64,000 nt of DNA, taken from Candidatus Gorgyraea atricola (GTDB taxonomy: Bacteria > Omnitrophota > Gorgyraeia > Gorgyraeales > Gorgyraeaceae). A model generated the notes under the pieces. The model did no database searches and was not told the origin of the DNA. It saw only the letters and a program-made list of their open reading frames with translations. The stretch spans positions 219,499 to 283,498 of the forward strand of contig JAVCCW010000029.1 in NCBI GenBank assembly GCA_030765235.1. The letters run 5' to 3'. Within the stretch, counting starts at the first letter, position 1, and every line of letters begins with the position of its first letter. This document shows positions 43,869-62,907 of this stretch, in pieces. Made by a program: the position numbers and the translations under genes.

Positions 43869-43880
43869 AAAATATTAATC

Positions 43881-44486
43881 ATGAAAAAGACTATTTTTCA
43901 AATAATATATGATTTTATATGCATGCCGTTTCGTTTAGTCCTTTTGCCGGACAGTATCTGCGAAAGGCTTGGCTTGACATCATTGCGGCAGGAACGCGTA
44001 TTTAATGTATTGCCGCATGTCAAAGGCAGGCTGATTGATATAGGATGCGGAGATAATATGCTGGTAAATATCTATTCTAATGGCTTAGGCGTTGATAACC
44101 GAGATTTAGGAAAAGGAGCTGTTATAATAAAGAATGTTGCCAATTTACCCTTCGAAGATCATACCTTTGATACAGTGACTTTTGTGGCTTCTTTGAATCA
44201 TATAGTTTCCAGAAAAGAGGCCTTGAGTGAGGCAAGGCGTTTATTGAAGCCGGACGGAAGACTTATTGTAACAATGATAGGGCCTATAATAGGAGCAATA
44301 GCGCATTTATTATGGTGGTATAGTGAAGATAAGCATCGAGGGGGCATGAAGAATGGAGAGGTAGGAGGCATGACTACCAAAGAGATACTGCGTTTATGTC
44401 TTGGGGCCGGATTCCAATTAAAAGAACATCAGAGGATCGTATACAAGATGAACAACATATATATCTTCGAATTGAAAAACGCGTAG
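43881..44486 (+). CDS. Class I SAM-dependent methyltransferase
   Basis: LIDIGCGDN...LKPDGRLIV. Confidence 0.65.
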   Translation: MKKTIFQIIYDFICMPFRLVLLPDSICERLGLTSLRQERVFNVLPHVKGRLIDIGCGDNMLVNIYSNGLGVDNRDLGKGAVIIKNVANLPFEDHTFDTVTFVASLNHIVSRKEALSEARRLLKPDGRLIVTMIGPIIGAIAHLLWWYSEDKHRGGMKNGEVGGMTTKEILRLCLGAGFQLKEHQRIVYKMNNIYIFELKNA

Positions 44487-44510
44487 GATCTCGCTGAAAC
44501 GGAAAGTTCA

Positions 44511-46429: not shown

Positions 46430-46430
46430 G

Positions 46431-47399
46431 ATGAAGAAATTCCTACTTGATTTATTGGTTTGCCCGCATTGTAAAGGAGAGCTGCGGCTCGAGGGGGCCG
46501 AGTATGCGGGCAAGGAAATAGAATCCGGCAGATTGGCATGTTCTTGCGGAGAGGTGTTCTCTATAAAAAACAGCATACCAAGGTTTATCAGGCCGGAAAA
46601 TTATGCGGATAGCTTTAGTTTTCAGTGGAGGTATTTTTCAAAGACGCAATTGGATTCTTTTAATAAGACGCATATTTCAGAAAATAGATTCAGAGAAATA
46701 ACAGATCTGTCTCATAAGAGGTTAGACAACAAGGTTGTTCTGGATGCGGGTTGCGGTATGGGCCGTTTCCTGGAGATAGCAGCTAAATCTAATGCTCAGG
46801 TAGTAGGAATTGATATGAGCCTGGCAGTGGATGCTGCAAAGGCTAATTTAAAGGACTTCCCAAATGTCCACATTGTGCAGGCAAGTATATTTAATATGCC
46901 TTTTAAACGGCATAGTTTTGATTTTATCTACAGTATAGGCGTTCTGCATAATACCCCGGATCCGAAAAAGGCCTTTAAGTCATTAACGCCTTTTTTGTCC
47001 AAGAATGCAGGCATAGCTGTATGGTTAGGCCCTAAGACTAAATTCCCGTGGTTTTTTACAGCGACGCGTGCGGTAAGGTCTTTTACTCCGAACATGAAGC
47101 CTGTATTTTTACTTAAGCTGGTCAGGTCCTTAGTGCCGTTGTGCCTGCCTTTAGTCAGGATCCCGTTTATCGGACCTTTACTTAAAGGTAAGATTATCCC
47201 AGTATGCGATTATAAGAATCAGCTCCCTTTGAATAATGCCCAGCTTCTGGAATGGAGCGTCCTTGATACATTTAATATTTTGTCTCCTAAATATCTGCAC
47301 CCGTGTAAACCCCAGGAGGTTAAATCCTGGTTTCTTGAATCCGGGCTTCGTGATATACAGATAACTTCTCCGTCTGTTACGGGCCGGGCTCATTCATAA
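46431..47399 (+). CDS. Methyltransferase with N-terminal Trm112-like zinc-ribbon
   Basis: LLVCPHCKGEL...CSCGEVFSI zinc-ribbon, followed by VLDAGCGMGRF motif I. Confidence 0.65.
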   Translation: MKKFLLDLLVCPHCKGELRLEGAEYAGKEIESGRLACSCGEVFSIKNSIPRFIRPENYADSFSFQWRYFSKTQLDSFNKTHISENRFREITDLSHKRLDNKVVLDAGCGMGRFLEIAAKSNAQVVGIDMSLAVDAAKANLKDFPNVHIVQASIFNMPFKRHSFDFIYSIGVLHNTPDPKKAFKSLTPFLSKNAGIAVWLGPKTKFPWFFTATRAVRSFTPNMKPVFLLKLVRSLVPLCLPLVRIPFIGPLLKGKIIPVCDYKNQLPLNNAQLLEWSVLDTFNILSPKYLHPCKPQEVKSWFLESGLRDIQITSPSVTGRAHS

Positions 47400-49126: not shown

Positions 49127-51031
49127 ATGTGCGGGATCTGTGGAATAGCTAATATATCGGATATCTCAAGAAAGATAGAAGCGTCTCATATCAGGCTGAT
49201 GTGCGATACATTGATCCACAGGGGTCCGGATGAAGATGGCGCGTATATTGACAACCATGTCGGTTTGGGCATAAGGCGCCTGCGGGTTATAGATTTAAAA
49301 ACCGGCAGCCAGCCGATATTTAATGAGAATAAGAGCATATGTGTAGTTAATAACGGAGAGATATATAATTTTAAAGAACTAAGGGAAAGGCTGCGCGCCA
49401 AAGGTCATGTCTTTTCTACAAATTCCGATGCAGAGGTCATAGTCCATTTATACGAGGAGGATGAAAATAGATTCATCGAGAATCTTGACGGCATGTTTGC
49501 CTTTGCCTTGTGGGATAAAAGGAACAGGAAGCTGGTAGTTGCGAGGGATAGGCTTGGGGTCAAGCCTTTGTATTATACGGTATCGGATTCAAGACTTTTA
49601 TTCGCGTCTGAGGTAAAGGCAATCATCGGCATAGAGGAAATAAGTCGGGATATCAATATGCAGGCCTTGGATTATTATCTTTCGCTGAATTATATTCCTT
49701 CGCCATTGACCATGTTCAAAGACATCTATAAACTGCCTCCGGCCAGCTTTCTTACACTGCATAAAGGCAGGGTCAACATCTCTAAATACTGGGATATAAC
49801 ATATAAAAAGGATTCCGGCAATGGCGTAAAGAAAGAGGGGTATTATTGCGAGGCGATATTGGGACTACTGGAAGAGGCTGTTAAGAAGAGGCTGGTGAGC
49901 GATGTCCCTCTCGGATTCTTTTTAAGTGGCGGGATAGATTCAAGCGCTATTGTGGCGTTGGCGAGCCGTTTTAATAAACCGATCAAGACTTTCTCCATAG
50001 CTTTTAAGGAAGGGTCTTTTGATGAATCGCGTTACGCGAGATCAGTGTCTGAAAGGTTTGGTACAGAACATCATGATTTTACAGTTTTGCCTAAAATAGA
50101 AGATATATTAGAAAAGGTCGTGTGGCATATGGATGAGCCTTGCGCGGATTCTTCGGCGATCCCAGTATATTATTTGTCGAAAATGGCGCGCGAACAGGTT
50201 ACAGTAGCCTTGTCAGGAGACGGAGGGGATGAATTATTCGGAGGATATCATTCTTACAATGCTTATAAAGCTGCAAGGATCTATAGAAAGACACCAGGTT
50301 TTCTTAAGTATGCCATTAAAAATGCCATAAAAAGAATACCTGTCTCATATTCGAAAGTGAGCATGGATTATATGGCTAAAAGGTTTGTAGATGGAGTCGA
50401 TCTGGATCCGTTAAGAGCGCATCTTTGGTGGACAGGTTCATTCAGTGAAACAGAAAAAGACTGTTTATACTCTAGGAACATAACTGGCCGCTTAAAAGGC
50501 TCAGGTAATTTTCAAATATTCAGAGATCATTATGAAAGAGAAGGCGCGAATGATGAATTAACCAGGCTTCTTTACCTTGATTTAAAGACATATTTGAGTG
50601 ATGATATCCTGGTAAAAGTAGACAGGATGAGCATGGCCAATTCTTTAGAAGTAAGGTCTCCTTTTCTGGATTTTAAATTAGCGGAGTTCGTATCTAATAT
50701 CCCTGTCCAATTTAAAATACGCGGGTTTGAAAAAAAATATATATTAAAAAAAGCCGTTTCTAAGATCCTTCCTGGGTCAGTTGTCAATCGTGGCAAAAAA
50801 GGCTTTAGTATCCCGGCTGGCCTCTGGATCAGAACGCACCTGAAAGAAATGACCATGGATTTATTGAATACCGGAAAGATAAAAGAACAGGGATTTTTTA
50901 ATCCGGCATTTGTATCAAAATTATTAGATAGGCATATCAGAGGAGAAGAGGATAATGGTCATCGCATCTGGGGATTGTTAGTTTTTTCTATATGGCATGA
51001 AACATTTATCAAAAGAAAGGTAAAGGTATAA
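49127..51031 (+). CDS. Asparagine synthetase (glutamine-hydrolysing) family amidotransferase, second paralogue
   Basis: MCGICGI N-terminus and FLSGGIDSS PP-loop. Confidence 0.85.
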   Translation: MCGICGIANISDISRKIEASHIRLMCDTLIHRGPDEDGAYIDNHVGLGIRRLRVIDLKTGSQPIFNENKSICVVNNGEIYNFKELRERLRAKGHVFSTNSDAEVIVHLYEEDENRFIENLDGMFAFALWDKRNRKLVVARDRLGVKPLYYTVSDSRLLFASEVKAIIGIEEISRDINMQALDYYLSLNYIPSPLTMFKDIYKLPPASFLTLHKGRVNISKYWDITYKKDSGNGVKKEGYYCEAILGLLEEAVKKRLVSDVPLGFFLSGGIDSSAIVALASRFNKPIKTFSIAFKEGSFDESRYARSVSERFGTEHHDFTVLPKIEDILEKVVWHMDEPCADSSAIPVYYLSKMAREQVTVALSGDGGDELFGGYHSYNAYKAARIYRKTPGFLKYAIKNAIKRIPVSYSKVSMDYMAKRFVDGVDLDPLRAHLWWTGSFSETEKDCLYSRNITGRLKGSGNFQIFRDHYEREGANDELTRLLYLDLKTYLSDDILVKVDRMSMANSLEVRSPFLDFKLAEFVSNIPVQFKIRGFEKKYILKKAVSKILPGSVVNRGKKGFSIPAGLWIRTHLKEMTMDLLNTGKIKEQGFFNPAFVSKLLDRHIRGEEDNGHRIWGLLVFSIWHETFIKRKVKV

Positions 51032-51035
51032 AAAT

Positions 51036-51995
51036 ATGGATATGAAAAAACCTTATCTAAGCGTTATAGTGCCTCTTTTTAATGAAGAGCACCATATAGC
51101 ATTGCTTTACAATAAGTTAAAGGAAGTCATTTCTAGATCAGGGATAATTTATGAATTAATATTTATAGATGATGGCAGCATAGACAAGACTTTTGATTTG
51201 GTCATGGAGTTACATAAAAAGGATAAGGATGTAAGGGTCATAAGGTTCTCTAAAAATTTCGGCCAGACGCTGGCATTGTCAGCCGGGTTTGATTCCGCGA
51301 ACGGAGAAGTTATAATAGCTATGGATGGGGATATGCAGCACGACCCGGAGGATATACCTTTATTTTTAAGCAAAATAGAAGAAGGATACGATGTAGTCAG
51401 CGGATGGAGAGAAAACAGGGTAGATGCCTTTTGGTCAAGAAGGCTTCCGTCTATGGTAGCGAATAAAATAATCTCCTGGATCTCCGGGGTAAAATTGCAT
51501 GATTTTGGGACAACATTCAAGGCTTATAAAAGCCATACTATAAAGAACTTGGATCTTTTCAGTGAATTACATAGGTTTATACCTGCTTTAGTCAGCGTAC
51601 AGGGGATCTCTATGACAGAGGTGCCTATTAAAAACACAGCCAGGAAACACGGGAAATCTAAATATAACCTTTTTCGTGTTTTCAAGGTCCTGCTTGATTT
51701 TGTGGTTGTTAAATATCTGATCAGTTTTATTAATTCCCCTTTAAAGATATTCGGTTCTTTGGGCTTGTTCATGTCTATGGCAGGCATATTCATAGACATT
51801 ATTTTAATCGGCCTGTTTCTCTTAGGAAAGATCGCCAATGTCAGGGATCACGGTGGGCTGCTGTTATTGTCGGTTCTATTGGTGGTAGTCGGAGTGCAAT
51901 TTATAACAGTGGCTGTCATAGCGGAGATAAGCGCCAAGATCTACCATGAGGTAAAAGGCCGGAAGGGATATGCGATAAAATTTAGAACAGATTAA
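51036..51995 (+). CDS. Polyprenyl-phosphate glycosyltransferase (GT2, GtrB/ArnC/Dpm1-like with C-terminal TM helices)
   Basis: LSVIVPLFNEE...IFIDDGSID...AMDGDMQHDPEDIP. The two C-terminal hydrophobic helices are characteristic of GtrB/ArnC. Confidence 0.8.
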   Translation: MDMKKPYLSVIVPLFNEEHHIALLYNKLKEVISRSGIIYELIFIDDGSIDKTFDLVMELHKKDKDVRVIRFSKNFGQTLALSAGFDSANGEVIIAMDGDMQHDPEDIPLFLSKIEEGYDVVSGWRENRVDAFWSRRLPSMVANKIISWISGVKLHDFGTTFKAYKSHTIKNLDLFSELHRFIPALVSVQGISMTEVPIKNTARKHGKSKYNLFRVFKVLLDFVVVKYLISFINSPLKIFGSLGLFMSMAGIFIDIILIGLFLLGKIANVRDHGGLLLLSVLLVVVGVQFITVAVIAEISAKIYHEVKGRKGYAIKFRTD

Positions 51996-52103: not shown

Positions 52104-53948
52104 ATGCTTAAAAATGAGAACATAATCTGCATATCCAGCATTGACTGGGATTTTATATGGCAGGGTCATCAAGAGATAATGTCTACCCTGGCAGAAAAGG
52201 GGAATCGTGTGCTCTTTATAGAAAATACAGGAGTGCGTACGCCAGGCATAAAAGATCTCTCCCGTATAAAGAGCAGGATCAGGAACTGGCTCAGGGGCGT
52301 AAAGGGTATACGCAAAGAAAGGGAAAATTTATACATATTCTCTCCTTTGGTCCTGCCGTTTCCTTATTCAAGGGTTGCGAGATGGATCAACAGGTATTTG
52401 ATATTGGCTGTGCTGGAGAAATGGATGAAAGCGGTAGATTTCAGCGATCCTATTGTCTGGACATTTTTGCCTGCGCCTCTAAGCATGGATATAGCCGATA
52501 GTTTGATGAAGAAACTTATAGTCTATTATTGCATAGACAATTTTTCCGGCAGTTCTCTATCGGCAAAGAAGATAGGAAAGTCAGAAGAAAGCCTGCTTAA
52601 GAGGTCTGACCTGGTTTTTGTGACATCAGAAGAGCTTTACAATAAATGCGCCAGGCATAACAGCAATGTCTATAAATTTCCTTTTGCCGTAAGTTTTGAA
52701 AAATTCGAAAAAGCAAGGCTGGGAAACACTGAGATCCCCGAGGAGTTAAAAAATATCAAACAGCCGATAGTCGGCTATGTGGGAGGAGTGCATAAATGGG
52801 TAGATCAGGGATTGATCAATGAATTAGCAAAGAAACATACTGACTATTCTTTTGTTTTTGTCGGTCCGATCCAAACCAAAGTATCCGAGCTCCTGAAACT
52901 TAAAAACGTTCATTTTTTAGGCAAAAAAGAACATGAAAGACTGCCTTTATTCATAAAATATTTCAATGTATGCATCATTCCTTATCTTATTACGGATTAC
53001 ACCAGAAATGTTTATCCTACAAAGTTAAATGAGTATCTTGCTCTGGGCAAAGCGGTCATATCGACACCTTTGCCGGAAATAGAATTATTTAATAAGGAAT
53101 ATGAGGATATTGTATGTATAGCCGAAGATGCCAATGCCTTTAGTGGGCACATAGAAAGGACTGTTAGGGAAAATGAACCTTCTTTGGTAAGCAGGAGAAT
53201 AGAAACAGCGCGGGATAATAGCTGGGAGAGCCGAATAGAGAAAATGAGCTCTACAATAGAAAAAGAGCTCGAAAGAAAAAAAATAGACAGGGAAAAAAGA
53301 TGGAAGGAAAATCTCCTTATTTTTTATAAGACAGCAAGAAAAAAGGCCGTCCGTTTCGGAATAATATGCCTTTCAGTATATCTTTTACTGTTCAAAACGC
53401 CTTTTATATGGTTTGCAGCCGAGCCTTTGAAGATCTCAGATGCCCCGCGTAAGGCAGACACTATTCTCGTATTTGGAGGAGGCGTGGGCGAGACAGGTGG
53501 GCCAGGCAGGAGTACCATAGAGAGGGCAAGATACGCCGCAGAACTCTATCTAAAAGGTTATTCCGGCAAAATAATATTCTCATCAGGATATACATATATT
53601 TACAACGATGCCGAAAACATGAGACTTATGGCTGTTTCTATGGGGGTAGACGAAAGAGATATTATTTTAGAACAAAAAGCAAATAGCACTTATGAAAATG
53701 TAATATTTTCAAAGGAGATTTTAGATAAAAATAATTGGCATTCAGTATTATTGGTTTCTTCGCCGTATAACATGCGCCGCGCTGATTTAGTATTCGATAA
53801 GCATGCTGGGGGCGTAAATATGTTTTGTGTGCCGGTTGAAAAAAGCCAGTTTTATGACAGGACTTTTGGTATAAAGGTAGGGCAGATAAGAGCGATCGTG
53901 CATGAGTATATCGGCATTATATATTATTTATTAAGAGGATATGCGTAA
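52104..53948 (+). CDS. Fusion: GT4 glycosyltransferase + C-terminal DUF218 (YdcF/ElyC/SanA-like) domain
   Basis: N-terminal GT-B features, and C-terminal ADTILVFGGGVGETGGPGRSTIERARYAAELY...VLLVSSPYNMRRA typical of DUF218. Confidence 0.65.
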   Translation: MLKNENIICISSIDWDFIWQGHQEIMSTLAEKGNRVLFIENTGVRTPGIKDLSRIKSRIRNWLRGVKGIRKERENLYIFSPLVLPFPYSRVARWINRYLILAVLEKWMKAVDFSDPIVWTFLPAPLSMDIADSLMKKLIVYYCIDNFSGSSLSAKKIGKSEESLLKRSDLVFVTSEELYNKCARHNSNVYKFPFAVSFEKFEKARLGNTEIPEELKNIKQPIVGYVGGVHKWVDQGLINELAKKHTDYSFVFVGPIQTKVSELLKLKNVHFLGKKEHERLPLFIKYFNVCIIPYLITDYTRNVYPTKLNEYLALGKAVISTPLPEIELFNKEYEDIVCIAEDANAFSGHIERTVRENEPSLVSRRIETARDNSWESRIEKMSSTIEKELERKKIDREKRWKENLLIFYKTARKKAVRFGIICLSVYLLLFKTPFIWFAAEPLKISDAPRKADTILVFGGGVGETGGPGRSTIERARYAAELYLKGYSGKIIFSSGYTYIYNDAENMRLMAVSMGVDERDIILEQKANSTYENVIFSKEILDKNNWHSVLLVSSPYNMRRADLVFDKHAGGVNMFCVPVEKSQFYDRTFGIKVGQIRAIVHEYIGIIYYLLRGYA

Positions 53949-53956: not shown

Positions 53957-55186
53957 ATGAAAAGCATTAAAGTTAGGAATATTCTGTTTATAATATTTAT
54001 TCTTGCGCTAGCTCTGAGATTATTCGCCGTTGCTACGTATCAAGAGTCAGGTAAACCGCTTTATGCAGATGCCAGGGTTTATGATAATTTGGCGGTAAAC
54101 ATAATGTCCGGTCATGGCTTTACGCAAGTCGTTGATGGGCCAAGAGTTCCTACGTCCAATAGGATGCCTATGTACCCGTTATTTTTAGCAGGTGTTTATT
54201 CTGTCTGTGGACATAGTTATTTGGCTGTAAGAATAATACAGGCTATTTTAGGCGCCTTGTTTTGTGTCGTGATATTTTTTATTACCAATATTATCTATAA
54301 TGATATAAAATCCGGCATCTTGGCTGCTTTGATGGCGGTTTTTTATAAGCCTTTTGTTTCAGGTTTTCTCTATTATGGCGGCCCTGCTTCAATTCTTTCG
54401 GAATATTTTTATATTTTTATACTTGGCGTTAGTATTTTATTTTTACTTTATTTTCTCAAGACAGAAAAGAAAGTTTTTGCGGTATTATCAGGTATTTTTG
54501 TAGGACTAACAATATTAACCAGGCCGGAATTCGCGTTATACCCGGTTGTTTTGTTTCTGTATTTAGTTTTTTCATGCAGGTTTAATATGAAAGTTTTTTT
54601 TAGAAAGTTTTTTATGATGTATGTTTTTATAGCATTGGTTTTGGCTCCATGGGTGACTAGGAATTATCTTGTTCAGGGTAAATTTATTCCACTAACTACC
54701 GTAAGTGGTTTTGCATTTTGGATGGGGAATAATTCTGTTGCGAGTGGCGGATGGGCCTATCCTCAACACTATTCTAAAGTCATGGATGAAATAAAGAATA
54801 TCTCCGAGTACGAGAAGAACAGGATATATTTTAAGCAAGGGATCGAGGAGTTAAAAAGAGATAAGAAGAGAATACCAGGCTTATTCTTTAAAAAAGCAAT
54901 AGTGCACTGGGCGCCTTTTGAAAAAGGATTAAAGGTGTTCAATCCTTTTTACGCATTCGTGCTTTTCTTCGGAGTTATCGGAATTTTATTTTTTAGAAAA
55001 CATGGTATCATGGAAGATATCGTGTTGATGATTTTTGCGGTCACGACACTGACAGCAATTATTATATGGGGAGATCCGAGGTACAGGTATCCTTATGAAT
55101 CTTATTTGATTATTTTTGCTGCCGTTGCAATAACTAAAATCTATAGCATGATAAAAAGAAAGGTCTTGGCTTATGGAAAAGGATAA
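53957..55186 (+). CDS. GT-C fold membrane glycosyltransferase (ArnT/PMT/GT39-83-like)
   Basis: ILALALRLFAV...GHSYLAVRIIQAILGALFCVVIF. Paralogous to ORF 59365, which shares GHSYLAVRIIQSILGALTCVFIY. Confidence 0.6.
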   Translation: MKSIKVRNILFIIFILALALRLFAVATYQESGKPLYADARVYDNLAVNIMSGHGFTQVVDGPRVPTSNRMPMYPLFLAGVYSVCGHSYLAVRIIQAILGALFCVVIFFITNIIYNDIKSGILAALMAVFYKPFVSGFLYYGGPASILSEYFYIFILGVSILFLLYFLKTEKKVFAVLSGIFVGLTILTRPEFALYPVVLFLYLVFSCRFNMKVFFRKFFMMYVFIALVLAPWVTRNYLVQGKFIPLTTVSGFAFWMGNNSVASGGWAYPQHYSKVMDEIKNISEYEKNRIYFKQGIEELKRDKKRIPGLFFKKAIVHWAPFEKGLKVFNPFYAFVLFFGVIGILFFRKHGIMEDIVLMIFAVTTLTAIIIWGDPRYRYPYESYLIIFAAVAITKIYSMIKRKVLAYGKG

Positions 55187-55871
55187 AAATAAAACCTGCG
55201 CTATCTCGTTGGTAATGCCTGCTAAAAACGAAGAAGAAGGAATAGCTGAACTTGTGGATTCATCAAGAAATTTTGTGGATGAGATCATAGTTGTAGATGG
55301 GCATTCAAGCGACAAAACAGCAGAGCGCGCTTCTTCTAAAGGAGCAAAGGTCGTTTTTGATAATAAAAAAGGTAAGGGGGATGCATATAAGGTAGGCATA
55401 CAAGAGGCAAGCGGGAATATAATTGTCTTTATGGATGCAGATGGGTCGCATGATCCGGCGCAAATCCCTGCATTAATAGAGCCTTTATTGAAGGATGAGG
55501 CAGATTTTGTAATAGGGTCAAGACATAAGGGCGGAAGCGACGAATGGAAGGGGGACCTTGACACGTATTTACGTAGTGTAGGCGGTGGATTTTTAACATT
55601 AGTGATTAATTATATATGGAAAACAAATCTTACAGAATGCCTTAATGGGTTCAGGGCTATAAAAAGAGATGTTGGGTTGAAGCTTGACTTAAAGGCTGAT
55701 GATTTTGATATTGAGCAGCACATGATAGTCCAATGCCTTAAGAAAAAATTTAGAGTAACAGAGGTAAATTCTCACGAATATGAAAGAAAATGGGGTGTCT
55801 CCAAATTGCCTACTTGCAGAAAAGCGCATTTATTTTTCTGGAGGTTGTTTTTGGATATTTTTAATTTATGA
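55173..55871 (+). CDS. Family 2 glycosyltransferase (Dpm1/GtrB-like catalytic domain, no TM tail)
   Basis: ISLVMPAKNEEEGI...VVDGHSSD...FMDADGSHDP. Confidence 0.7.
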   Translation: MEKDKNKTCAISLVMPAKNEEEGIAELVDSSRNFVDEIIVVDGHSSDKTAERASSKGAKVVFDNKKGKGDAYKVGIQEASGNIIVFMDADGSHDPAQIPALIEPLLKDEADFVIGSRHKGGSDEWKGDLDTYLRSVGGGFLTLVINYIWKTNLTECLNGFRAIKRDVGLKLDLKADDFDIEQHMIVQCLKKKFRVTEVNSHEYERKWGVSKLPTCRKAHLFFWRLFLDIFNL

Positions 55872-55886: not shown

Positions 55887-57299
55887 TTGAAAATATTGCT
55901 TTGTACCGCAACAAGAGAAAGTAATCCTGCTTCAATAAAGGCTATTGATGAGGTGTTTACTGTTTCAGAGTCGCTAGGGATAGCTTATATAGCCGCAGTT
56001 TTAATACAAAATGGTTATGATGTCGAGGTATTGGATTGTCTTGCGGAAGGATATGATAGCGGCGCATTTCAAGCATTCTTGCTGCAAAAGAAATATGATG
56101 TTATAGGTATAAGCACATATACACCCGACTGGTATATAACAAAGAAAAATCTTTCAATGATTAAGAGGCTGCAACCTGACTCAATTACAGTTATAGGCGG
56201 CCCGCATGTAAACTCTATGGTAAGTGGAGGCTTGGGTAAATATTTATTTAGCGATAGCGATTTTTTCGATTTCGCTGTTTATGGCGAAGGCGAGCAGACG
56301 TTCTTAGATATAGTTAGAGCAGTAGCAGATAAGAAAGACATAAATAACATTGATGGAGTTCTCTGGAAAAATAGTAACGGGCAAGGCCATATAAATTTGC
56401 CGCGGAAGCTGATAAAGGATATAGACACAATACCTTTTCCTGCTTTAGAATGCCTTCCCCTGTCTAAATATAAAAGGACACCTTCAAGCTATAAAAGACC
56501 ACCGGTGAGATCTATATTGACAACAAGAGGATGTCCATATTCATGCATCTTTTGCGATCGGGGCGCTTTCGGCTCTTTCGTAAGGCAAAGGTCTATAGAA
56601 AACGTAATGCGTGAAGTTGATAGATTGGTAAAAGAATTTAAAACAAAAGAATTAAGGATTTGGGATGATGTTTTTACCATGAACGAAAAAGTTACAACAG
56701 GAATCTGCGATGAATTAAAAAGGTATGATTTGGTCTGGAGTTGTAATGGCAGAGTTAATATGATTACCCCTAACATGCTCAAACATATGAAATCTGCAGG
56801 TTGCTGGTCAGTAGATTTTGGCATAGAGAGTGGCAGTAATAAAATACTAAAATTAATCAATAAAAAATTTACTATTCAAAAGGCATCCGAAGCTATAAAA
56901 ATGGTAAAGAAAGCGGGAATGGAGGTAAGGGCATTTTTTATTTTAGGGCTTCCCGAAGAAACAATAGAAACTGTCCAGGATACCATTGATTTTGCACTTT
57001 CAAGTGATATTGATTACGCGACATTCTATCTGCCCCAGGCTTATCCCGGTACAAGGCTATATGAAATAGCCAAAAAAGAAAATGCGTTAGAAACAGATTA
57101 TTCAAAATATCTTATTACAGGAAAAGAAGCTTCTTATGTAAATAAAAACATCGGTCTAAAAAATATACAGCTTTTTCAAAGAAAGGCCTACGCGTCCTTT
57201 TACAAGCGCCCTTCTTATATAGCAAAAAGAATATTGAAGATCAGGAGCTTTGAGGACATCAAGAGATATTTGAGCGCCATATCAATTTTTAAGATCTAA
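55887..57299 (+). CDS. B12-binding radical SAM enzyme (class B), second paralogue
   Basis: MKILLCTA N-terminus with B12-binding-like domain, and radical SAM motif TTRGCPYSCIFC. TTG start at 55887 (a purine-rich GGTGA lies only about 3 nt upstream, a weak/close RBS). There is no downstream in-frame ATG near the conserved N-terminus. Confidence 0.75.
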   Translation: MKILLCTATRESNPASIKAIDEVFTVSESLGIAYIAAVLIQNGYDVEVLDCLAEGYDSGAFQAFLLQKKYDVIGISTYTPDWYITKKNLSMIKRLQPDSITVIGGPHVNSMVSGGLGKYLFSDSDFFDFAVYGEGEQTFLDIVRAVADKKDINNIDGVLWKNSNGQGHINLPRKLIKDIDTIPFPALECLPLSKYKRTPSSYKRPPVRSILTTRGCPYSCIFCDRGAFGSFVRQRSIENVMREVDRLVKEFKTKELRIWDDVFTMNEKVTTGICDELKRYDLVWSCNGRVNMITPNMLKHMKSAGCWSVDFGIESGSNKILKLINKKFTIQKASEAIKMVKKAGMEVRAFFILGLPEETIETVQDTIDFALSSDIDYATFYLPQAYPGTRLYEIAKKENALETDYSKYLITGKEASYVNKNIGLKNIQLFQRKAYASFYKRPSYIAKRILKIRSFEDIKRYLSAISIFKI

Positions 57300-57318
57300 T
57301 TTAAGGTGATTTTTGGAC

Positions 57319-59346
57319 ATGTTATCGGTTATTGTTCCTGTATATAATGATGAGAAATATTTAGCGAAATGCTTGGAGTCTGTATTTAATTCTGATTACC
57401 CGGATTTTGAAGTAATAGTTGTAAACGATAATAGCACAGACGGTTCATTGGATATCGCAAAAAGATTCTCATGTCGGATAATAGATTTAAAAACAAATGA
57501 AGGAGTAGCTACAGCGAGAAATAAAGGCGCGGAATCCGCAAAAGGAGATATTCTTGTTTTCTTTGATTCGGATGTAGTGCTTGAGAGAGACACTCTGTCA
57601 AAGTTCGCAAAAGCCCATAAAAATCCAGATATCAAGATATATCAATGTCAAATATACCATGAGTCATTGACTCCTGGGTTTACTCCCGCAGTCCATGCAG
57701 TGCTTCATAATTATCTATTGAGTTTAATGGGGTCGGAGACTTCATATGTGCAAACGTTTGCTTTCTCAATCAGTAAAGCAGTCTTTTTTGAAATAGGAGG
57801 ATTTAATACTAGTTTTAAGTCGGCAGGAGGGGAAGAATTTGAGATAGGGCAGGTTATTCAACAGCACAATTACAAGATGTTGTTGGATCAGTCATTTCAT
57901 GTACATCATAATTTTGTGAGTTTTCCGAAAAGGTTTAAAAAATTACTTAAAAGAAGCTATGTCTATGTAAGAATCGTCCTTCAGAGAAATTTTAAACTTG
58001 ATAAGGGTTATGGTACTCTAAAGGAAGGCATTAATTCCATGCTTTCTGTGATCGGAATCTTGTCACTTAGTATTTCGTTATTTATGCGTTATGCGCTTTT
58101 ATTATTTTTTGCTACTATATTAATTCAAACCCTTCTTGACCATGGCTTGTATGCTTATAGCGCTAGAAAAAAAGGGATATTTTTTTCAGCCCGTTCGATA
58201 CCTATAATTTACCTTTGGTATTTAGCGATGGGCATGGGTGCTATAAGAGCTGTCCTATCTCACTATCTAACGAAGATATATTCTTGCCTAAAGATGTTCA
58301 ATTTTTTATTTTCTAAAACTCCACCGTATGTAATATTTTTAGTAACGTCTAAATGTAATGCTCGATGCAAACATTGCTTTAATTGGAAAAAAGTGCAAAA
58401 TCAGGAATTACCAAAAGAACTTACCTTAGATGAAATTAAAAAGATATCCGCAGGTTTTGGCATAATAAAATACATGACTTATGGCGGAGGGGAGCCTAGT
58501 TTACGAGAAGACATTGTGAGTGTTACGCAGGTATTTTATGGTAATAATAATTTAGAGAGGTTAAATTTTATTACCAATGGTTTTGCTACAGAGAAGCTTG
58601 TTAATGAGATAGAGGGGATTTTAAGGATTTGCCCGGGATTGCACCTTACAGTCAGTTTTTCAATAGACGGTATCGAAGGGCAGCACGATGAAATAAGAGG
58701 GGTGCCAGGGGGATTTAAAAGATTGTTAAAATCTGTAAATGAAATAAAAAATTTACAAAAATATTATCCTAAGCTGAAGATATTAGCAACAACTGTTTAT
58801 TCCGGACTCAACTCAGATAATATATTCAATATTATAGATTATGTGACAAAGACATTGAAATTAGAAATGGTTCTGGGTTATATTCGCGGCGAGATATTTG
58901 ATAAGGATGCCAAGAAAGTAGATATAGAAACTTACGTTAAGGCAAGCACGATGCTTATGAGGCTGAATACTAAGAATTCAAGAAATATTGATATAATTAG
59001 AGCGATAGACAATGTTTGCTTTAGATTAGTAGCAAAGACAAAGAAAAAAAAAGAGAGACTATTACAGTGTGTAGTTGGAAAAAAACTTATAGAGATAGAT
59101 AGTGACGGTACGATAATTCCTTGCGAGATGTTAGATGTTAATTTTGGCAATATGCGAGATTATGATTACGATATCAAAAGAGTTTTAAAGACAAAGAAAG
59201 CCCTGGATTTCTTTAAATTCTTGAAAAGAAAAGATTGTTATTGTACATGGGAATGCGCTATGAAAAATAATATAATTTACTCTATATCGGAATATCCTGG
59301 TTTGTTTTTCGAATGCCTTAGGCAATTATTGATAAAGGATAAATAG
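57319..59346 (+). CDS. Fusion: GT2 glycosyltransferase + membrane segment + radical SAM (SPASM-like) domain
   Basis: N-terminus LSVIVPVYNDEKYL...VIVVNDNSTD...FDSD (GT2), then a central hydrophobic region. The C-terminal domain has TSKCNARCKHC (CxxxCxxC) and a Cys-rich tail, CEMLD...CYCTWEC. ATG 57319 is 9 nt after TAAGGTGA; TTG 57313 is an alternative start. Confidence 0.7.
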   Translation: MLSVIVPVYNDEKYLAKCLESVFNSDYPDFEVIVVNDNSTDGSLDIAKRFSCRIIDLKTNEGVATARNKGAESAKGDILVFFDSDVVLERDTLSKFAKAHKNPDIKIYQCQIYHESLTPGFTPAVHAVLHNYLLSLMGSETSYVQTFAFSISKAVFFEIGGFNTSFKSAGGEEFEIGQVIQQHNYKMLLDQSFHVHHNFVSFPKRFKKLLKRSYVYVRIVLQRNFKLDKGYGTLKEGINSMLSVIGILSLSISLFMRYALLLFFATILIQTLLDHGLYAYSARKKGIFFSARSIPIIYLWYLAMGMGAIRAVLSHYLTKIYSCLKMFNFLFSKTPPYVIFLVTSKCNARCKHCFNWKKVQNQELPKELTLDEIKKISAGFGIIKYMTYGGGEPSLREDIVSVTQVFYGNNNLERLNFITNGFATEKLVNEIEGILRICPGLHLTVSFSIDGIEGQHDEIRGVPGGFKRLLKSVNEIKNLQKYYPKLKILATTVYSGLNSDNIFNIIDYVTKTLKLEMVLGYIRGEIFDKDAKKVDIETYVKASTMLMRLNTKNSRNIDIIRAIDNVCFRLVAKTKKKKERLLQCVVGKKLIEIDSDGTIIPCEMLDVNFGNMRDYDYDIKRVLKTKKALDFFKFLKRKDCYCTWECAMKNNIIYSISEYPGLFFECLRQLLIKDK

Positions 59347-59364: not shown

Positions 59365-60564
59365 ATGTCGAAAAGAACTGGAACATTATTTAATATGGGA
59401 TTTACCAAGGGACGCCATACATTAGGGTTTATATTTTTGTTAGCCTTTATCATAAGGCTGTTATTTGTATTGCAGAGTAGCGACATTCCTACGGCAGATG
59501 CTTATATTTATGATGGATTAGGATTATCGCTGAGTCAGGGTAATGGTTATGTAAATATGTATGGCAGTCCTCATTCCTTTTATCCTCCGTTTTATCCGTT
59601 TTTTTTATCACTGATCTATGCTATTTTTGGGCATAGTTATCTCGCGGTAAGGATTATCCAGTCTATTTTAGGCGCGTTGACGTGCGTATTTATATATTCT
59701 ATAGGGAATAGGCTGAAAGGCAGCGCTGTCGGCGTATTATCTGCTTCAGTAGCGGCGTTATACTTTGTATTTATAAAGAGCGCAGAGCTTTTGCTCACAG
59801 AATCATTTTTTACTTTTCTTTTATGCGCGATAGTTTTTTATATTCTTAAAATCAGGGAGAAAGAAGCTGTGCTCAAAAACTATGCCATTTTAGGATTATT
59901 AATAGGCGTGTCGCTTCTTACCAAGTCAGCGATGATGTTTTTTCCATTATTTTTGCTACCAGTGTTTATCGATATAAAAAAAGACAGGACAAAAAAATAT
60001 TTATTGATGTTGCTATTTTTTGTCCTGACGGTTTCTCCATGGCTTATAAGGAATTATAATGTTTTTCATGGATTTATCGGGGTTTCCACGCAGAGCGGTA
60101 TAGGTTTTTATTCTTCTTATCGGCCCCCTGAAGGCATATTCGGGAGGCTTGCCACTTCTGATGATCCCGTAATCAGAGAAGCAGGAAATATTGCTTCGCC
60201 TGTTTTGCGCAGTAATTTTTTAATAAAAAAGACATTCGAGTTTATATCGGAGAATCCCGTAGAAGTTTTAAGGTTGGAACTCAAGAAGATCTTATCTTTC
60301 TGGGCTCCGTTTGACTGGGAGATAGTAGGCGGGAGATGGTTTAATTTTGTATATGCAGCGATACTGCCATTTTTCGCGGTCGGAGCCTTACTTTCCCTTA
60401 AGGAATTTAAGAAGATTTACCCGGTTTTACTGCCAATAATTTATTTTCAAATAGTGGCTTTAGTCTTTTATGGCTCGCCGCGCTTTAGATTACCTGTGGA
60501 GCCATATATATTTATTCTGGCAACAGTAGGGTTTTTAGTATGCTGGAGGAGGTGGCGGGTATGA
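59365..60564 (+). CDS. GT-C fold membrane glycosyltransferase (ArnT/PMT-like), paralogue of 53957
   Basis: See ORF 53957. Shared sequence block, about 11 TM helices. Confidence 0.6.
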   Translation: MSKRTGTLFNMGFTKGRHTLGFIFLLAFIIRLLFVLQSSDIPTADAYIYDGLGLSLSQGNGYVNMYGSPHSFYPPFYPFFLSLIYAIFGHSYLAVRIIQSILGALTCVFIYSIGNRLKGSAVGVLSASVAALYFVFIKSAELLLTESFFTFLLCAIVFYILKIREKEAVLKNYAILGLLIGVSLLTKSAMMFFPLFLLPVFIDIKKDRTKKYLLMLLFFVLTVSPWLIRNYNVFHGFIGVSTQSGIGFYSSYRPPEGIFGRLATSDDPVIREAGNIASPVLRSNFLIKKTFEFISENPVEVLRLELKKILSFWAPFDWEIVGGRWFNFVYAAILPFFAVGALLSLKEFKKIYPVLLPIIYFQIVALVFYGSPRFRLPVEPYIFILATVGFLVCWRRWRV

Positions 60565-61415
60565 TCGATGAGTTTTATAGAGAGATTATTAAAAGACTCG
60601 ATATCCATTTTTTTGTTGAGACAGGCACAGATATGGGGGAGACGGTAGCTGAAGTGGCTAGGTGGTTTTCGGAGATGGATTCCAGATTTGGAAAAATATC
60701 TGATTATGCAGTGACTGGTGCAAGATACTATAGCTTAAATAGCAAACTCATTAAGTATCCTATTTTTGAAGATGTTAGTGAATCTCAATTTAATTTATTT
60801 TCTGTAGATATTGATCGTCATTCATTTGAGAGCGCCAGAGAACTTTTTAAAACAAATAAAAATATTAAACTGTTTCATGGGGATTCTGCAAAATTTTTAC
60901 AAAAGTGTATTGATGAAGGCATATTTAAAAGTTCGAAAACAATATTTTTTCTCGATGCACATTGGGGGAAGTATTGGCCGTTAAGAGATGAGCTAAAGCA
61001 AGCATTAAAACTTGAGAAATCCGTCATTATAATAGACGATTTTTTTGTTCCTAGACGATCAAGTAAGCATCGGCCGCATGGAGATTTTGGATTTGATTTT
61101 TATTATGGGAGGATTTTGTGCTGGGGATATATTTACGATTTATTTTATAACGTAGATGTCAGAGTGTATTATCCTACCCATTCAAATAAATACGGCAGGG
61201 GTTTTGTTGTGTTGTTCAAAGGGTATAGTAGTGAAGAGCTTAGTTTTTTGAAAAGCATGCCGTTAGAGTATTTTGATAAAGACAACCCATTACATAGAAA
61301 ACCAGTTTCTCTATCTTTGTTGGCATATTTTGATTTTTATTATTTTGTACGTCGCATAGTCCCTTTATCATTACTGAGAAGAGCTATAAGGATGTTTCAA
61401 AAGATAGTCCATTGA
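60561..61415 (+). CDS. Hypothetical protein, possibly a methyltransferase-like (TylF/CmcI-like) fold
   Basis: HFFVETGTDMGET and FFLDAHW are weakly reminiscent of macrocin-O-MTase/cephalosporin hydroxylase-like folds. ATG 60561 follows GGAGGAGG and overlaps the upstream stop (ATGA). Confidence 0.35.
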   Translation: MIDEFYREIIKRLDIHFFVETGTDMGETVAEVARWFSEMDSRFGKISDYAVTGARYYSLNSKLIKYPIFEDVSESQFNLFSVDIDRHSFESARELFKTNKNIKLFHGDSAKFLQKCIDEGIFKSSKTIFFLDAHWGKYWPLRDELKQALKLEKSVIIIDDFFVPRRSSKHRPHGDFGFDFYYGRILCWGYIYDLFYNVDVRVYYPTHSNKYGRGFVVLFKGYSSEELSFLKSMPLEYFDKDNPLHRKPVSLSLLAYFDFYYFVRRIVPLSLLRRAIRMFQKIVH

Positions 61416-61422: not shown

Positions 61423-62907
61423 ATGAAGCCCTTGCTTTCGGAACAAGAGAAAAACAGGACCATTTATTGGGACAAGTTTGACCCTTTTGTAGAATTACGG
61501 ATGGGATGGCGGGCTTCTATGATGCGCCATCTTTTTCATATTCTTCCGGGGCAGAGCATTCTTGAGATAGGAGGGGGTAACGGAAAATTTACACAGGTTT
61601 TAGCCCAGGCAACGCGAGGAGAATGCAAGATAACATCTATAGTTTTTTCACGCGAATATTTGGATAATAAAAAGAATCTTGCCTGCTCCAATGTAGATAC
61701 ATTATACATGGATATGTTTCCGGGATCATTAGTAGATAGAAAGTTTGATTGTGTAGTGGCGCAAGATATGTTAGAAAAAAACACTGCAACTGATTTTCTC
61801 TATATCGTTAAATCTTTGATAAAACCCGGCGGGAGCCTTCTTTTGTTCGAGCCTAATTCCTGGAATCCTTATTATAGAATCCGCAGAACGATCAGAAAAA
61901 TATTACCGGTAGACTGGAAACGTCCGTCAGAAGGCGTTTTACTTAATAGGCTGCAGGTGTTTTCTGTTTTGTCAGAAATAGGATATGCTAAAATCAATGT
62001 CCTTCCTTACGATTTTCTTTATTCACCGATTCCCAAATTTTTAGTATGGCCGGCCAAGAACATGAGTATCATTATGGAAAATTGCCCTTATTTAAGAAAT
62101 CTTGCCGGTTCATTGTATATTTGGGCGCAGAATCCTGCTTTTGAGAACCACAAAGAATTAACCGTGGATCTATGTGAACATCCCATGTTCTTTAAAAAGG
62201 TATCTTTTATAATACCATGTCATAATGAAGAGATGAATATAAAGTCGTTGGTAAAGAATTTAAAGGATTTTTATGACAGGTATATTTTTGAAATTATTAT
62301 AGTAGATGATAATTCGAAAGACAGAACTGCTGAAATAACCGAGGCATTAGTGAAAGAAGATAGCCGTATAAGGCTTATAAAGCGTGTGCCTCCGAACGGA
62401 GTCGGCAGGGCTTTGCGAGATGGTCTGAAAAAGGCGAAGGGCGAATACATTTTAATAATGGACAGTGATTTTCAACATATTATCCCTGAAATGAGAGATC
62501 TTTTCGATGTCGTAGCCAAAGGCGCTGACGTAGCAGTAGGCTCCAGGTTTTCTCGTGATTCTGTTTTGGTAAAATATGATTTCACAAAAATTATAGCCAA
62601 TCGTTTTTTTCATATATTAGCCAATTTATTTCTTGGCAGGCATTTTCGGGATATTTCCAATAATTTGAAGATTTTTCGCCGCGAAGTAATTGAGAAAATT
62701 ACAATTGAATCGGATGATTTTGCTGCAAATGCCGAGACAGGCCTAAAACCTTTATTGCTCGGTTATAATGTTAAGGAGGTACCTATTTCCTGGATAAACA
62801 GAAGCGTAGACATGGGCGTTTCTTCTTTCAAGGTCTTTAAGACGGGACCAAATTATTTTAAGATTTTATTAAAACTGGTATGGCGACGGATAATAGGTAA
62901 GTTATGA
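61423..62907 (+). CDS. Fusion: class I SAM methyltransferase + GT2 (Dpm1-like) glycosyltransferase
   Basis: N-terminal ILEIGGGNGKFTQVL (motif I). C-terminal VSFIIPCHNEE...IIVDDNSKD...IMDSDFQH. Confidence 0.75.
   Translation: MKPLLSEQEKNRTIYWDKFDPFVELRMGWRASMMRHLFHILPGQSILEIGGGNGKFTQVLAQATRGECKITSIVFSREYLDNKKNLACSNVDTLYMDMFPGSLVDRKFDCVVAQDMLEKNTATDFLYIVKSLIKPGGSLLLFEPNSWNPYYRIRRTIRKILPVDWKRPSEGVLLNRLQVFSVLSEIGYAKINVLPYDFLYSPIPKFLVWPAKNMSIIMENCPYLRNLAGSLYIWAQNPAFENHKELTVDLCEHPMFFKKVSFIIPCHNEEMNIKSLVKNLKDFYDRYIFEIIIVDDNSKDRTAEITEALVKEDSRIRLIKRVPPNGVGRALRDGLKKAKGEYILIMDSDFQHIIPEMRDLFDVVAKGADVAVGSRFSRDSVLVKYDFTKIIANRFFHILANLFLGRHFRDISNNLKIFRREVIEKITIESDDFAANAETGLKPLLLGYNVKEVPISWINRSVDMGVSSFKVFKTGPNYFKILLKLVWRRIIGKL

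Follow-up and report, generated by a model that had tools for sequence, protein, structure and literature searches.

The gene at positions 57319..59346 of the window (the whole 64-kb stretch of DNA that was analysed; the features given below with start and end positions lie on its + strand) raises the question whether a glycosyltransferase, a membrane segment and a radical SAM enzyme are really joined in one polypeptide, and what such a protein would do. In the ORF list, the gene is a single + strand ORF that ends at 59346 and begins with either a TTG at 57313 or an ATG at 57319. The ATG is the likely start, as in the preliminary description, because a Shine-Dalgarno-like AAGGTGA (57303..57309) is located 9 nt 5' of it, and the resulting protein is 675 aa long. 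A Pfam scan of this protein matched all three expected domains: Glycos_transf_2 at residues 3-128 (E 1.7e-36), Radical_SAM at residues 342-500 (E 4.1e-14) and, marginally, SPASM at residues 584-646 (22.2 bits versus a cut-off of 21.5). The AlphaFold2 model is continuous and confident (pLDDT 91.1, pTM 0.81), and full-length homologs with 29-69% identity, in about 50 clusters, were obtained from independent samples. The single ORF, the Pfam matches, the model and the full-length homologs together indicate that the fusion of a GT2 domain, a membrane module and a radical SAM domain in one polypeptide, as proposed earlier, is genuine.

The same architecture was found in other genomes, both fused and as adjacent separate genes. 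An exhaustive search of 1.84 billion cluster representatives returned at least 44 fused representatives (50%-identity clusters), and a scan of 185,579 species genomes, for which an alignment of 14 closer sequences was used as the query, returned 76 related loci, of which 9 are clearly fused; the architecture is therefore as rare as had been claimed. For the radical SAM half, the exhaustive search gave about 1,200 representatives with E <= 1e-30. The family is present in Bacteria and Archaea, and the nearest relatives in the species genomes are found in Woesearchaeota MAGs (57-58% identity). The halves are separate genes in 32 species genomes and adjacent in 30. The GT2 gene precedes the radical SAM gene on the same strand at 25 loci, mostly abutting or overlapping it and twice with a gap of about 600 nt, while the order is reversed at 3 loci and the genes are divergent and adjacent at 2. 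At the split locus L010, the GT2 protein aligns to residues 1-319 of the fusion (32% identity, E 3e-50) and the radical SAM protein to its C-terminal half (35% identity). A rough tree shows the fused forms intermingled with the split ones at five or more points. The adjacency of the halves in either order, together with this interleaving, argues that the two activities work together, and backs the earlier suggestion that sugar transfer is coupled to a radical step. Some candidate relatives were rejected. The adjacent pair at locus L006 is not a split copy, since its 497-aa GT2 is of a different, methyltransferase-linked type and its 358-aa radical SAM protein is only a distant relative (26% identity), and the second SPASM enzyme of the window (at 41073) shows no meaningful similarity to the fusion and is not its paralog.

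The split loci could also be taken to mean that sequencing or assembly had joined two adjacent genes, the split arrangement being the commoner one: the 25 species genomes mentioned above have the halves in the order of the fusion, and several of the split loci show an overlapping stop/start junction at the same position. We consider the probability of such a frameshift or assembly artefact negligible and have rejected it, since the fusion recurs in 9 species genomes and at least 44 representatives, its linker is conserved and free of gaps among independent assemblies that share 47-69% identity, and the model contains one continuous, high-confidence helix (residues 287-326) that is predicted to span the junction.

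The N-terminal GT2 domain recognised in the preliminary description extends over residues 1-200 (57319..57918), and both its profile match and its GT-A fold place it in glycosyltransferase family 2. The DxD motif, D83-S-D85 (nt 57565-57573), is conserved in 35/35 and 34/35 homologs for the first and second aspartate, respectively, E172 in the sequence GGEEFE is present in all 35 and is, by its position, the candidate catalytic base, and H197 is invariant or nearly so. Judged by these residues, the domain retains the full set of catalytic features expected of an inverting, metal-dependent GT-A transferase. It is followed by a basic amphipathic interface helix, FPKRFKKLLKRSYVYVRIVLQR (residues 202-223, 57922..57987), which is helical in the model, has a mean hydrophobicity of -0.15 and a hydrophobic moment of 0.41, and carries conserved K/R at positions 205, 207, 211 and 212. 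The hydrophobic region that had been noticed at residues ~240-330 is real, and is modelled as a membrane module (residues 234-326, 58018..58296) of three hydrophobic helices, comprising residues 234-252, 259-285 (kinked) and 287-326. A conserved basic loop (R283, K285) precedes the third helix, which runs on as the linker into the radical SAM domain.

The GT-A domain and membrane module together resemble PcManGT, the dolichyl-phosphate-dependent membrane GT2 mannosyltransferase of Pyrobaculum calidifontis (PDB 6YV7), in a Foldseek comparison (E 1.7e-12 over 335 columns), and 296 residues could be aligned with hyaluronan synthase. The small helical membrane module that follows the interface helix is like that of PcManGT, whereas the sequence identity is only 18-19% and PcManGT has no radical SAM domain. 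If the three modelled hydrophobic helices were full membrane spans, the radical SAM domain would be extracellular, which speaks against the function that we propose below. We argue that this domain is probably cytoplasmic, based on the charge distribution and on soluble stand-alone homologs: in 29 of the 32 split GT2 proteins, the residues behind the last hydrophobic helix carry a net positive charge, and the stand-alone radical SAM versions begin at the equivalent of residue 320, without a signal peptide or membrane helix. The three helices of PcManGT are reportedly full membrane spans, an arrangement that cannot hold for the fusion if its radical SAM domain is cytoplasmic.

The radical SAM core spans residues 337-532 (58327..58914). 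It contains the CNARCKHC motif that had been pointed out before, at residues 346-353 (nt 58354-58377), and the SAM-binding motif GGEP, likewise invariant or nearly so, at residues 390-393 (nt 58486-58497). The three cysteines of the CX3CX2C motif, C346, C350 and C353, are present in every one of 35 fusions and 26 stand-alone radical SAM halves. With this motif, the GGE motif and a partial TIM-barrel fold, the C-terminal domain belongs to the radical SAM superfamily and is predicted to cleave SAM. From the conserved residues, the GT2 and radical SAM domains both look competent. The core is followed by a cysteine-rich region (59068..59256) with the pattern C584-X12-G597-X4-C602 ... C640-X-C642-X3-C646. 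Such a second cluster had been described earlier, but C584 was overlooked. C584, C602, C640 and C642 are invariant in the same 35 fusions and 26 radical SAM halves, C646 is conserved in 30 of the 35 fusions, and the final cysteine, C666, is not conserved. A canonical SPASM domain has the seven-cysteine pattern CX(9-15)GX4C - gap - CX2CX5CX3C - gap - C, and cysteine conservation rules out a canonical, two-cluster SPASM domain here, since the first element is present but the second is reduced to C640-X-C642-X3-C646. The Pfam SPASM match is marginal, and the domain, called SPASM-like before, is better described as a twitch-like (truncated SPASM) auxiliary-cluster domain. Its first cysteine pair aligns with the hairpin of the SkfB twitch domain, and the further cysteines appear sufficient for a single cluster; because four cysteines are invariant and a fifth is present in 30/35 fusions, one auxiliary Fe-S cluster is predicted.

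The domain composition also bears on the reaction types that had been listed for the radical SAM domain. C-methylation is unlikely since the domain comes without a cobalamin domain, and the neighbouring B12 enzyme is the better candidate for that reaction. Nor is thioether or peptide cross-linking likely, as the fusion contains no RRE (peptide-recognition) domain: the first strand of the core begins at residue 337, directly after the membrane helices, and the stand-alone radical SAM forms start about 20 residues ahead of the cluster motif.

No curated family or published paper on a GT2-radical SAM fusion or module was found among the family models and in the full-text literature. The best NCBIfam scores of the fusion are 65-84 bits versus cut-offs of 300-500, no characterised homolog is close, and assignment to HpnI/HpnJ, MftF/MftC, EpsD, NirJ, AhbD, PTO1314 or similar families was rejected because the scores are far under the curated cut-offs. 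The twitch and SPASM enzymes SkfB, anSME, BtrN and BlsE share less than 20% identity with the fusion, which reaches none of the curated family thresholds, and none of them is tethered to a membrane or joined to a glycosyltransferase; the substrates of SkfB and anSME are peptides. Mycofactocin biosynthesis is alike in that a GT2 (MftF) and a SPASM-type radical SAM enzyme (MftC) operate in one pathway. The GT2 half matches the MftF model (E 1.3e-19) with 70.5 bits versus a cut-off of 280, which is below equivalog level, and MftC does not appear in the 25 best NCBIfam matches to the fusion. In contrast to mycofactocin, there is no MftA precursor, MftB chaperone or RRE here, and one auxiliary cluster is predicted instead of two.

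The genes around the fusion point to glycan assembly. Immediately upstream, ending 19 nt before the fusion, lies the class B (cobalamin) radical SAM gene that had been noted before (55887..57299), which Pfam confirmed: it encodes an N-terminal B12-binding domain (PF02310, E 1.8e-15) and a Radical_SAM domain (PF04055, E 4.5e-27) with the CX3CX2C sequence CPYSCIFC at residue 216, and its best NCBIfam match is HpnJ (207.8 bits versus a cut-off of 577.6). Further upstream are a small GT2 resembling the polyprenyl-phosphate sugar synthases AglJ and PpgS (55173..55871; NCBIfam 138 and 73 bits, respectively, both under the cut-off), a GT-C transferase of the PMT_2 type (53957..55186; Pfam E 1.3e-9) in the same gene array, and a GT2 with C-terminal membrane helices like ArnC and PgfS, of the undecaprenyl-phosphate sugar synthase type (51036..51995; NCBIfam ArnC 190.8 bits over the full length, under the cut-off). 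A second PMT_2 protein, an ArnT-like GT-C fold transferase (59365..60564; Pfam E 9.7e-19 and a weak NCBIfam match to ArnT), is encoded 18 nt downstream of the fusion. Its gene is overlapped by 25 nt by that of a 291-aa protein (60540..61415), which has no Pfam or NCBIfam match and is not conserved beside the module elsewhere, and then follows a SAM-methyltransferase fused to a dolichyl-phosphate-hexose-transferase-like GT2 (61423..62907; Pfam and NCBIfam). The fusion gene is thus part of a tight array with ArnC-, AglJ- and Dol-P-hexose-transferase-like GT2s and two PMT_2 genes. There are no tRNA genes in the 64-kb window.

A similar picture emerged from 177 flanking genes at 33 loci, which include 24 genes with a Radical_SAM domain, 17 of these with a B12-binding domain, a further 14 GT2, 11 PMT_2, 3 YfhO and 4 LPG_synthase_TM genes, and 4 Wzx-type flippases. 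Homologs of the upstream B12-radical SAM enzyme (22-35% identity to 55887..57299) are found within 10 kb of the module in 23 genome loci, and glycan loci carrying the module contain up to five B12-radical SAM paralogs. Small polyprenyl-phosphate-sugar-synthase-like GT2s adjoin the module at six loci (L004, L017, L025, L036, L040 and L073), and with Wzx, GT4, GT-C, amidotransferase and aminotransferase genes the loci resemble those for polysaccharide synthesis or protein glycosylation. These flanking genes and the tight array in the window make a lipid-linked substrate likely, and the occurrence of the family in both Bacteria and Archaea speaks for a carrier that the two domains share rather than for membrane lipids specific to one of them. 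Against our proposal are the findings that no more than about a third of the loci have GT-C genes beside the module, and that in Nanoarchaeota the module gene stands alone among housekeeping genes.

In the reading that we prefer, to which we assign a probability of roughly 50%, the fusion is a bifunctional membrane enzyme whose two activities act successively on the same membrane-anchored glycoconjugate. With a nucleotide sugar as donor, the GT2 domain would glycosylate a lipid-linked acceptor on the cytoplasmic side of the membrane. This acceptor is most probably a sugar or short glycan carried on polyprenyl phosphate, and the conserved basic loop of the membrane module may bind its phosphate. 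The tethered radical SAM domain would then cleave SAM reductively, and the 5'-deoxyadenosyl radical would take a hydrogen from the newly added or a neighbouring sugar, with the auxiliary cluster handling the extra electron. By analogy with BtrN, anSME and BlsE, the outcome could be dehydrogenation to a keto sugar, epimerisation or decarboxylation. The neighbouring B12-radical SAM enzyme may add another radical reaction, for instance a C-methylation or rearrangement, after which the edited sugar, still lipid-linked, would be flipped across the membrane, and the adjacent GT-C enzymes (PMT_2) would attach it to glycans or proteins of the cell surface. The order of the GT2 and radical steps could also be reversed. 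The logic of this scheme is that of ArnC-ArnD-ArnT, of DprE1/DprE2 with GT-C arabinosyltransferases and of GtrA/B/C, in which a polyprenyl-phosphate sugar is made by a GT2 at the cytoplasmic face, edited while lipid-bound, flipped and transferred by a GT-C enzyme on the outside. The analogy with these three-component glycosylation systems is suggested by gene neighbourhood, since the module repeatedly has genes for GT2, flippase-like and GT-C proteins around it. The differences are that editing of the ArnD or DprE1/DprE2 type is hydrolytic or flavin/NAD-dependent, not radical, and that the GT2 of the fusion is apparently outside the ArnC, GtrB and DPMS subtypes.

Several other functions were considered. 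In the HpnI-HpnK-HpnJ system (bacteriohopanetetrol cyclitol ether) and with the calditol synthase Cds, a radical SAM enzyme remodels a sugar that a glycosyltransferase has already attached to a membrane lipid, an earlier example of radical SAM chemistry on a lipid-bound sugar (PMC13459092). The module might likewise tailor membrane-lipid head groups, with the GT2 glycosylating a lipid alcohol and the radical SAM enzymes contracting or rearranging the ring into a carbocyclic head group. HpnJ is the best curated match of the upstream B12 enzyme, the GT2 half has weak matches to HpnI and Glyco_transf_21, some neighbours of the module are LPG_synthase_TM proteins, and in Promethearchaeota a UbiA prenyltransferase gene separates the fusion from two B12-radical SAM genes. 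However, all family scores are far under the cut-offs (46 bits versus 310 for HpnI and 208 versus 578 for HpnJ, below equivalog level), and the HpnJ resemblance is generic, because ten partner B12 enzymes score equally on the BchE and HpnJ models. Moreover, the loci have no hopanoid context, neither a squalene-hopene cyclase nor lipid-synthesis genes being seen there, and they resemble loci for polysaccharide synthesis or protein glycosylation; the Hpn and Cds systems are not known to include a fusion. The family spans Bacteria and Archaea and also DPANN and CPR, lineages that are generally reported to lack membrane-lipid synthesis. We therefore regard head-group tailoring as rather unlikely.

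A soluble sugar substrate seems unlikely too. DesII and BlsE act on nucleotide-linked sugars, and the radical SAM domain might in the same way modify the nucleotide sugar, which the fused GT2 would then transfer. Yet an enzyme with a soluble substrate has no obvious gain from being tethered to membrane helices by a long helix, and in structure the domain is no closer to sugar-acting radical SAM enzymes than to the peptide-modifying SkfB, SuiB and anSME. The radical SAM domain might instead be a SPASM/twitch-type maturase that modifies a peptide or surface protein glycosylated by the GT2, comparable to glycocin and sactipeptide systems. We find this improbable, as RiPP radical SAM maturases are recognised by an RRE domain and an adjacent precursor peptide, and the fusion has no RRE domain, no conserved small precursor gene was noticed beside the module in a general inspection of the neighbours, and these neighbours are glycan-assembly genes. 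The fusion might, finally, be a processive polysaccharide synthase of the cellulose or hyaluronan synthase type, the radical SAM domain of which would modify the nascent polymer. Processive GT2 synthases combine a QxxRW motif with a multi-helix channel, but the motif is absent from the fusion sequence and the model has only three hydrophobic helices. In the PcManGT study, three helices are said to match half of the BcsA tunnel; since they match only half, a monomer of the fusion cannot form a channel, and this function is highly improbable.

To our knowledge, carbohydrate-acting radical SAM enzymes are few, and nearly all are from antibiotic pathways with soluble substrates. More tentatively, our preferred reading can be extended to a widespread, unrecognised route in uncultured bacteria and archaea, including DPANN, CPR and many candidate phyla, in which radical SAM enzymes possibly edit polyprenyl-phosphate-bound sugars at the membrane, as an oxygen-independent counterpart of DprE1/DprE2- or ArnD-type editing. 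Together with the B12-radical SAM paralogs, such a route might supply GT-C enzymes with unusual sugars for the cell surface, whether keto, epimerised, decarboxylated, C-methylated or carbocyclic. The conserved two-part module, fused and split, ties a radical SAM enzyme to a membrane glycosyltransferase in cell-surface glycan loci of lineages whose cell envelopes are very poorly known. The fusion makes a hard problem tractable, because the radical enzyme should act on what its own N-terminal domain makes, or vice versa, so that a new lipid-linked sugar and a new radical reaction could both come to light from work on a single recombinant protein. The proposed role would also help to explain why the glycan loci that carry the module contain so many B12-radical SAM paralogs, up to five in one locus.

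The fusion is encoded by a single open reading frame on the + strand that starts at TTG 57313 or ATG 57319 and ends at 59346. Since a ribosome-binding site (AAGGTGA) is located 9 nt 5' of ATG 57319, the most likely length of the protein is 675 aa. Pfam recognised Glycos_transf_2 (residues 3-128, E 1.7e-36) and Radical_SAM (residues 342-500, E 4.1e-14), and between these lie three hydrophobic, non-amphipathic helices (234-252, 259-285 with a kink at 274, and 287-326), so that the GT2, membrane and radical SAM combination proposed in a preliminary description indeed occurs in one polypeptide. The GT-A domain (residues 1-200) carries DSD at 83-85, and D83, D85 (34/35), E172 and H197 (34/35) were conserved in an alignment of 35 homologs. 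It is followed by a basic amphipathic helix (202-223), of a type that in membrane GT2s rests along the membrane surface. The radical SAM core begins at residue 337 and contains CNARCKHC at 346-353 and GGEP at 390-393. Judged by sequence, both catalytic motif sets are intact. An AlphaFold2 model based on 35 homologs was confident throughout (pLDDT 91.1, pTM 0.81) and predicts one unbroken helix, residues 287-326, across the junction of the two halves. For neither half did any NCBIfam curated model come near its cut-off, and beyond the superfamily level the fusion shows the defining feature of no specific family.

In a word-indexed protein search, approximately 50 clusters of 670-730 aa, derived from independent metagenomes and MAGs, covered 97-100% of the query at 29-69% identity. 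An exhaustive search of 1.84 billion cluster representatives gave 1,223 proteins at E <= 1e-30, and among the best 150 matches at least 44 were full-length fusions in a single stretch, while about 14 others looked fused with a divergent N-terminal half. The linker aligned gap-free among closer homologs. Because of these independent homologs, the gap-free linker and the continuous helix in the model, the concern that a frameshift or assembly artefact had joined two genes is extremely unlikely to be justified, and we regard the fusion as a real bifunctional polypeptide. A 176-aa public protein fragment (P0125) was 100% identical to residues 501-675, so this organism, or one almost identical to it, has been sampled elsewhere.

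The second Cys cluster had been described as SPASM-like. In the Pfam scan suggested at the time, the GT2 and Radical_SAM matches were clear, but SPASM (residues 584-646) was marginal, with 22.2 bits versus a cut-off of 21.5. The only invariant C-terminal cysteines in 35 fusions and 26 stand-alone or split halves were C584, C602, C640 and C642; C646 was kept in 30/35 and C666 was not conserved. The first pair fits a CX(9-15)GX4C hairpin and aligns with the twitch hairpin of SkfB, and the C-terminal part lacks the CX2CX5CX3C element that a true SPASM domain would have. This leaves ligands for one auxiliary cluster, as in a twitch-like domain, and the missing element and variable C666 rule out a two-cluster SPASM domain. 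Elsewhere in the window, a stand-alone radical SAM protein with a full SPASM domain (41073-42107, + strand; Pfam 48.7 bits; CNANCIFC at residue 47) proved unrelated to the radical SAM half of the fusion on comparison; 3' of it lie a PP-loop-like protein and a series of SAM-methyltransferases (42094-43191, 43188-47399).

If the module crossed the membrane three times in full, the radical SAM domain would end up outside the cell, an implausible location. Stand-alone radical SAM homologs begin at the equivalent of residue 320 without signal peptide or membrane helix, and the tail past the last hydrophobic helix was net positive in 29 of 32 split GT2 proteins, which argues for a cytoplasmic C-terminus of the membrane module. 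The loop before the third helix is conserved basic (K/R in 77% at 283 and 86% at 285). From these sequence features we infer that the radical SAM domain is cytoplasmic, and that the third helix probably has both ends in the cytoplasm and is not a true span.

Scanning 185,579 species, each represented by one genome, yielded 76 loci, all from MAGs or SAGs. The nearest relatives of the fusion were found in Woesearchaeota (57-58% identity), and other hits included Nanoarchaeota, Bathyarchaeota, Undinarchaeota and Methanosarcinales among the Archaea, and Patescibacteria/Buchananbacteria, Nitrospirae, Geobacteraceae, Latescibacterota, Planctomycetota, Fermentibacteria and Hydrogenedentes among the Bacteria, besides further groups. 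According to ORF calling and BLAST, nine loci were fused. GT2 preceded radical SAM as separate genes on the same strand in 25 loci, with gaps of -43 to +81 nt in 23 and about 600 nt in two, several pairs having overlapping stop/start junctions. The reverse order occurred in three loci, opposite strands in four (two of them adjacent and divergent), and in 21 the radical SAM half alone was recognised (partial contigs or a divergent GT2). In locus L010, the split GT2 (321 aa) aligns to fusion residues 1-319 (32% identity, E 3e-50) and the split radical SAM protein (372 aa) to the C-terminal half (35% identity), with a B12-radical SAM gene in between. Fused and split forms interleave in at least five places when the radical SAM halves are placed in a rough neighbour-joining tree. 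When two genes fuse and split repeatedly and also lie side by side in either order, this is classically taken as a sign that their products work together; the halves are tightly coupled in evolution, and the suggested coupling of sugar transfer to a radical step is now well supported.

The fusion lies in a tight gene array on one strand, where the intergenic gaps around it measure -25 to +19 nt. In order, the array comprises an asparagine-synthase-like amidotransferase, an ArnC-like GT2, a GT1-DUF218 fusion, PMT_2, an AglJ/PpgS-like GT2, a B12-radical SAM gene, the fusion, PMT_2, a no-match protein, and a methyltransferase fused to a Dol-P-hexose-transferase-like GT2. The class B radical SAM gene noticed previously (55887..57299) ends 19 nt upstream of the fusion and has Pfam B12-binding and Radical_SAM domains. 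The no-match protein (291 aa; 60540-61415, + strand; 25-nt overlap with the PMT_2 gene end) resembles no Pfam or NCBIfam family, and in the other loci nothing corresponding to it was found near the module. The entire 64 kb is a glycan-assembly super-locus, in which four radical SAM genes and three PMT_2 genes occur alongside a Wzx flippase, methyltransferases and many GT4/GT2 genes. Window ORFs of at least 150 aa are nearly all on the + strand, the sole minus-strand one scanned being a methyltransferase (27305-28072); GC content is 33-41%, every 2-kb bin shows positive GC skew, and the 64 kb holds no tRNA genes. Positions 1-64000 read as one very long co-directional glycan-assembly locus. It is unusually rich in domain fusions (61423-62907, 52104-53948, 33013-35055, 15444-17174, 7647-10109), namely methyltransferase with GT2, GT1 with DUF218, GT2 with GT4, HMGL-like with MptE-like, and an 820-aa protein whose C-terminal domain is a CMP-sugar cytidylyltransferase. 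An LdpA-like 4Fe-4S protein with 13 Cys (17161-18162, +), separated by one ORF (18162-18926) from a second, downstream B12-radical SAM gene (18916-20469, +), has homologs near the GT2/radical SAM pair in L040 (4138-5265, 46% identity) and L078 (19520-20575, 33%), and may be an electron donor for radical SAM enzymes. Homologs (35-46% identity) of the window's two asparagine-synthase-like amidotransferases (37116-38939, 49127-51031) flank the module in Latescibacterota/Fermentibacteria (L022, L048, L050, L052, L077), usually as two ORFs on either side of a small GT2, which hints at sugar-acid amidation in the same pathway.

In a Pfam analysis of 177 genes that lie no more than three genes away from the module, from 33 non-redundant loci, the most frequent families were 24 Radical_SAM genes (17 with B12-binding), 14 GT2, 11 PMT_2, about 10 TPR, about 9 methyltransferases, 4 LPG_synthase_TM, 4 Wzx-type flippases, 3 YfhO and 3 sulfatase/phosphodiesterase genes. 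Homologs of the window's B12 enzyme occurred within 10 kb of the module in 23 loci. The glycan loci that harbour the module abound in polyprenyl-phosphate-type GT2s, GT-C transferases, flippase-like proteins and B12-radical SAM enzymes. In a Patescibacteria MAG (L039, 437-14522), five B12-radical SAM paralogs surround the split pair within 14 kb. Two Promethearchaeota MAGs have a UbiA-family prenyltransferase between the fusion and two B12-radical SAM genes (L004:12138-13028, L005:8714-9604), the only obvious prenyl-lipid enzyme among the loci examined. In L002, L003 and L015 (Nanoarchaeota/Nanobdellati MAGs) the fusion stands alone amid housekeeping genes (wyosine-type radical SAM, deoxyhypusine synthase, ribosomal protein L37ae), and in L021, from the same group, no glycan gene of the window type was detected next to it; evidently, these small genomes keep the fusion without the rest of the glycan locus.

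The two halves are likely to act in coupled catalytic steps on a single membrane-bound glycoconjugate. In the scheme we favour, with a probability of roughly one in two, the GT2 half would glycosylate a lipid-linked acceptor on the cytoplasmic side of the membrane, the radical SAM domain tethered to it would abstract a hydrogen from the newly transferred sugar, and the single auxiliary cluster might assist a redox-type edit, which could be dehydrogenation, epimerisation or decarboxylation. A methyl group or a rearrangement would come from the B12 partner, after which the edited product would be flipped and used by GT-C enzymes. Polyprenyl phosphate is the most probable carrier, an assignment that we make tentatively; because the module is found in Bacteria as well as Archaea, a carrier common to both is favoured over domain-specific membrane lipids. 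Editing of the donor prior to transfer is unlikely, and a role in peptide or protein maturation quite improbable.

HpnI/HpnJ-like or calditol synthase-like tailoring of a lipid head group has a precedent among radical SAM enzymes (PMC13459092). However, the B12 partners scored 180-250 bits on the HpnJ and BchE models alike, under both cut-offs, so their likeness to HpnJ is generic, and we consider this alternative rather unlikely. A processive polymer synthase is a still poorer candidate and highly improbable, since the QxxRW motif is absent from the fusion sequence.

The constituent parts belong to known superfamilies. By analogy, the proposed pathway would resemble ArnC/ArnD/ArnT and DprE1/2 with GT-C, three-component glycosylation systems in which a lipid-linked sugar is edited, and HpnJ and Cds, which would offer a parallel in the radical remodelling of lipid-bound sugars. 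Our literature search, which included a review from 2026 on radical SAM enzymes that modify lipids, found no glycosyltransferase-radical SAM fusion or module. Until its substrate is found, the fusion is one of many uncharacterised radical SAM families; it is uncommon, evolutionarily robust and experimentally tractable.
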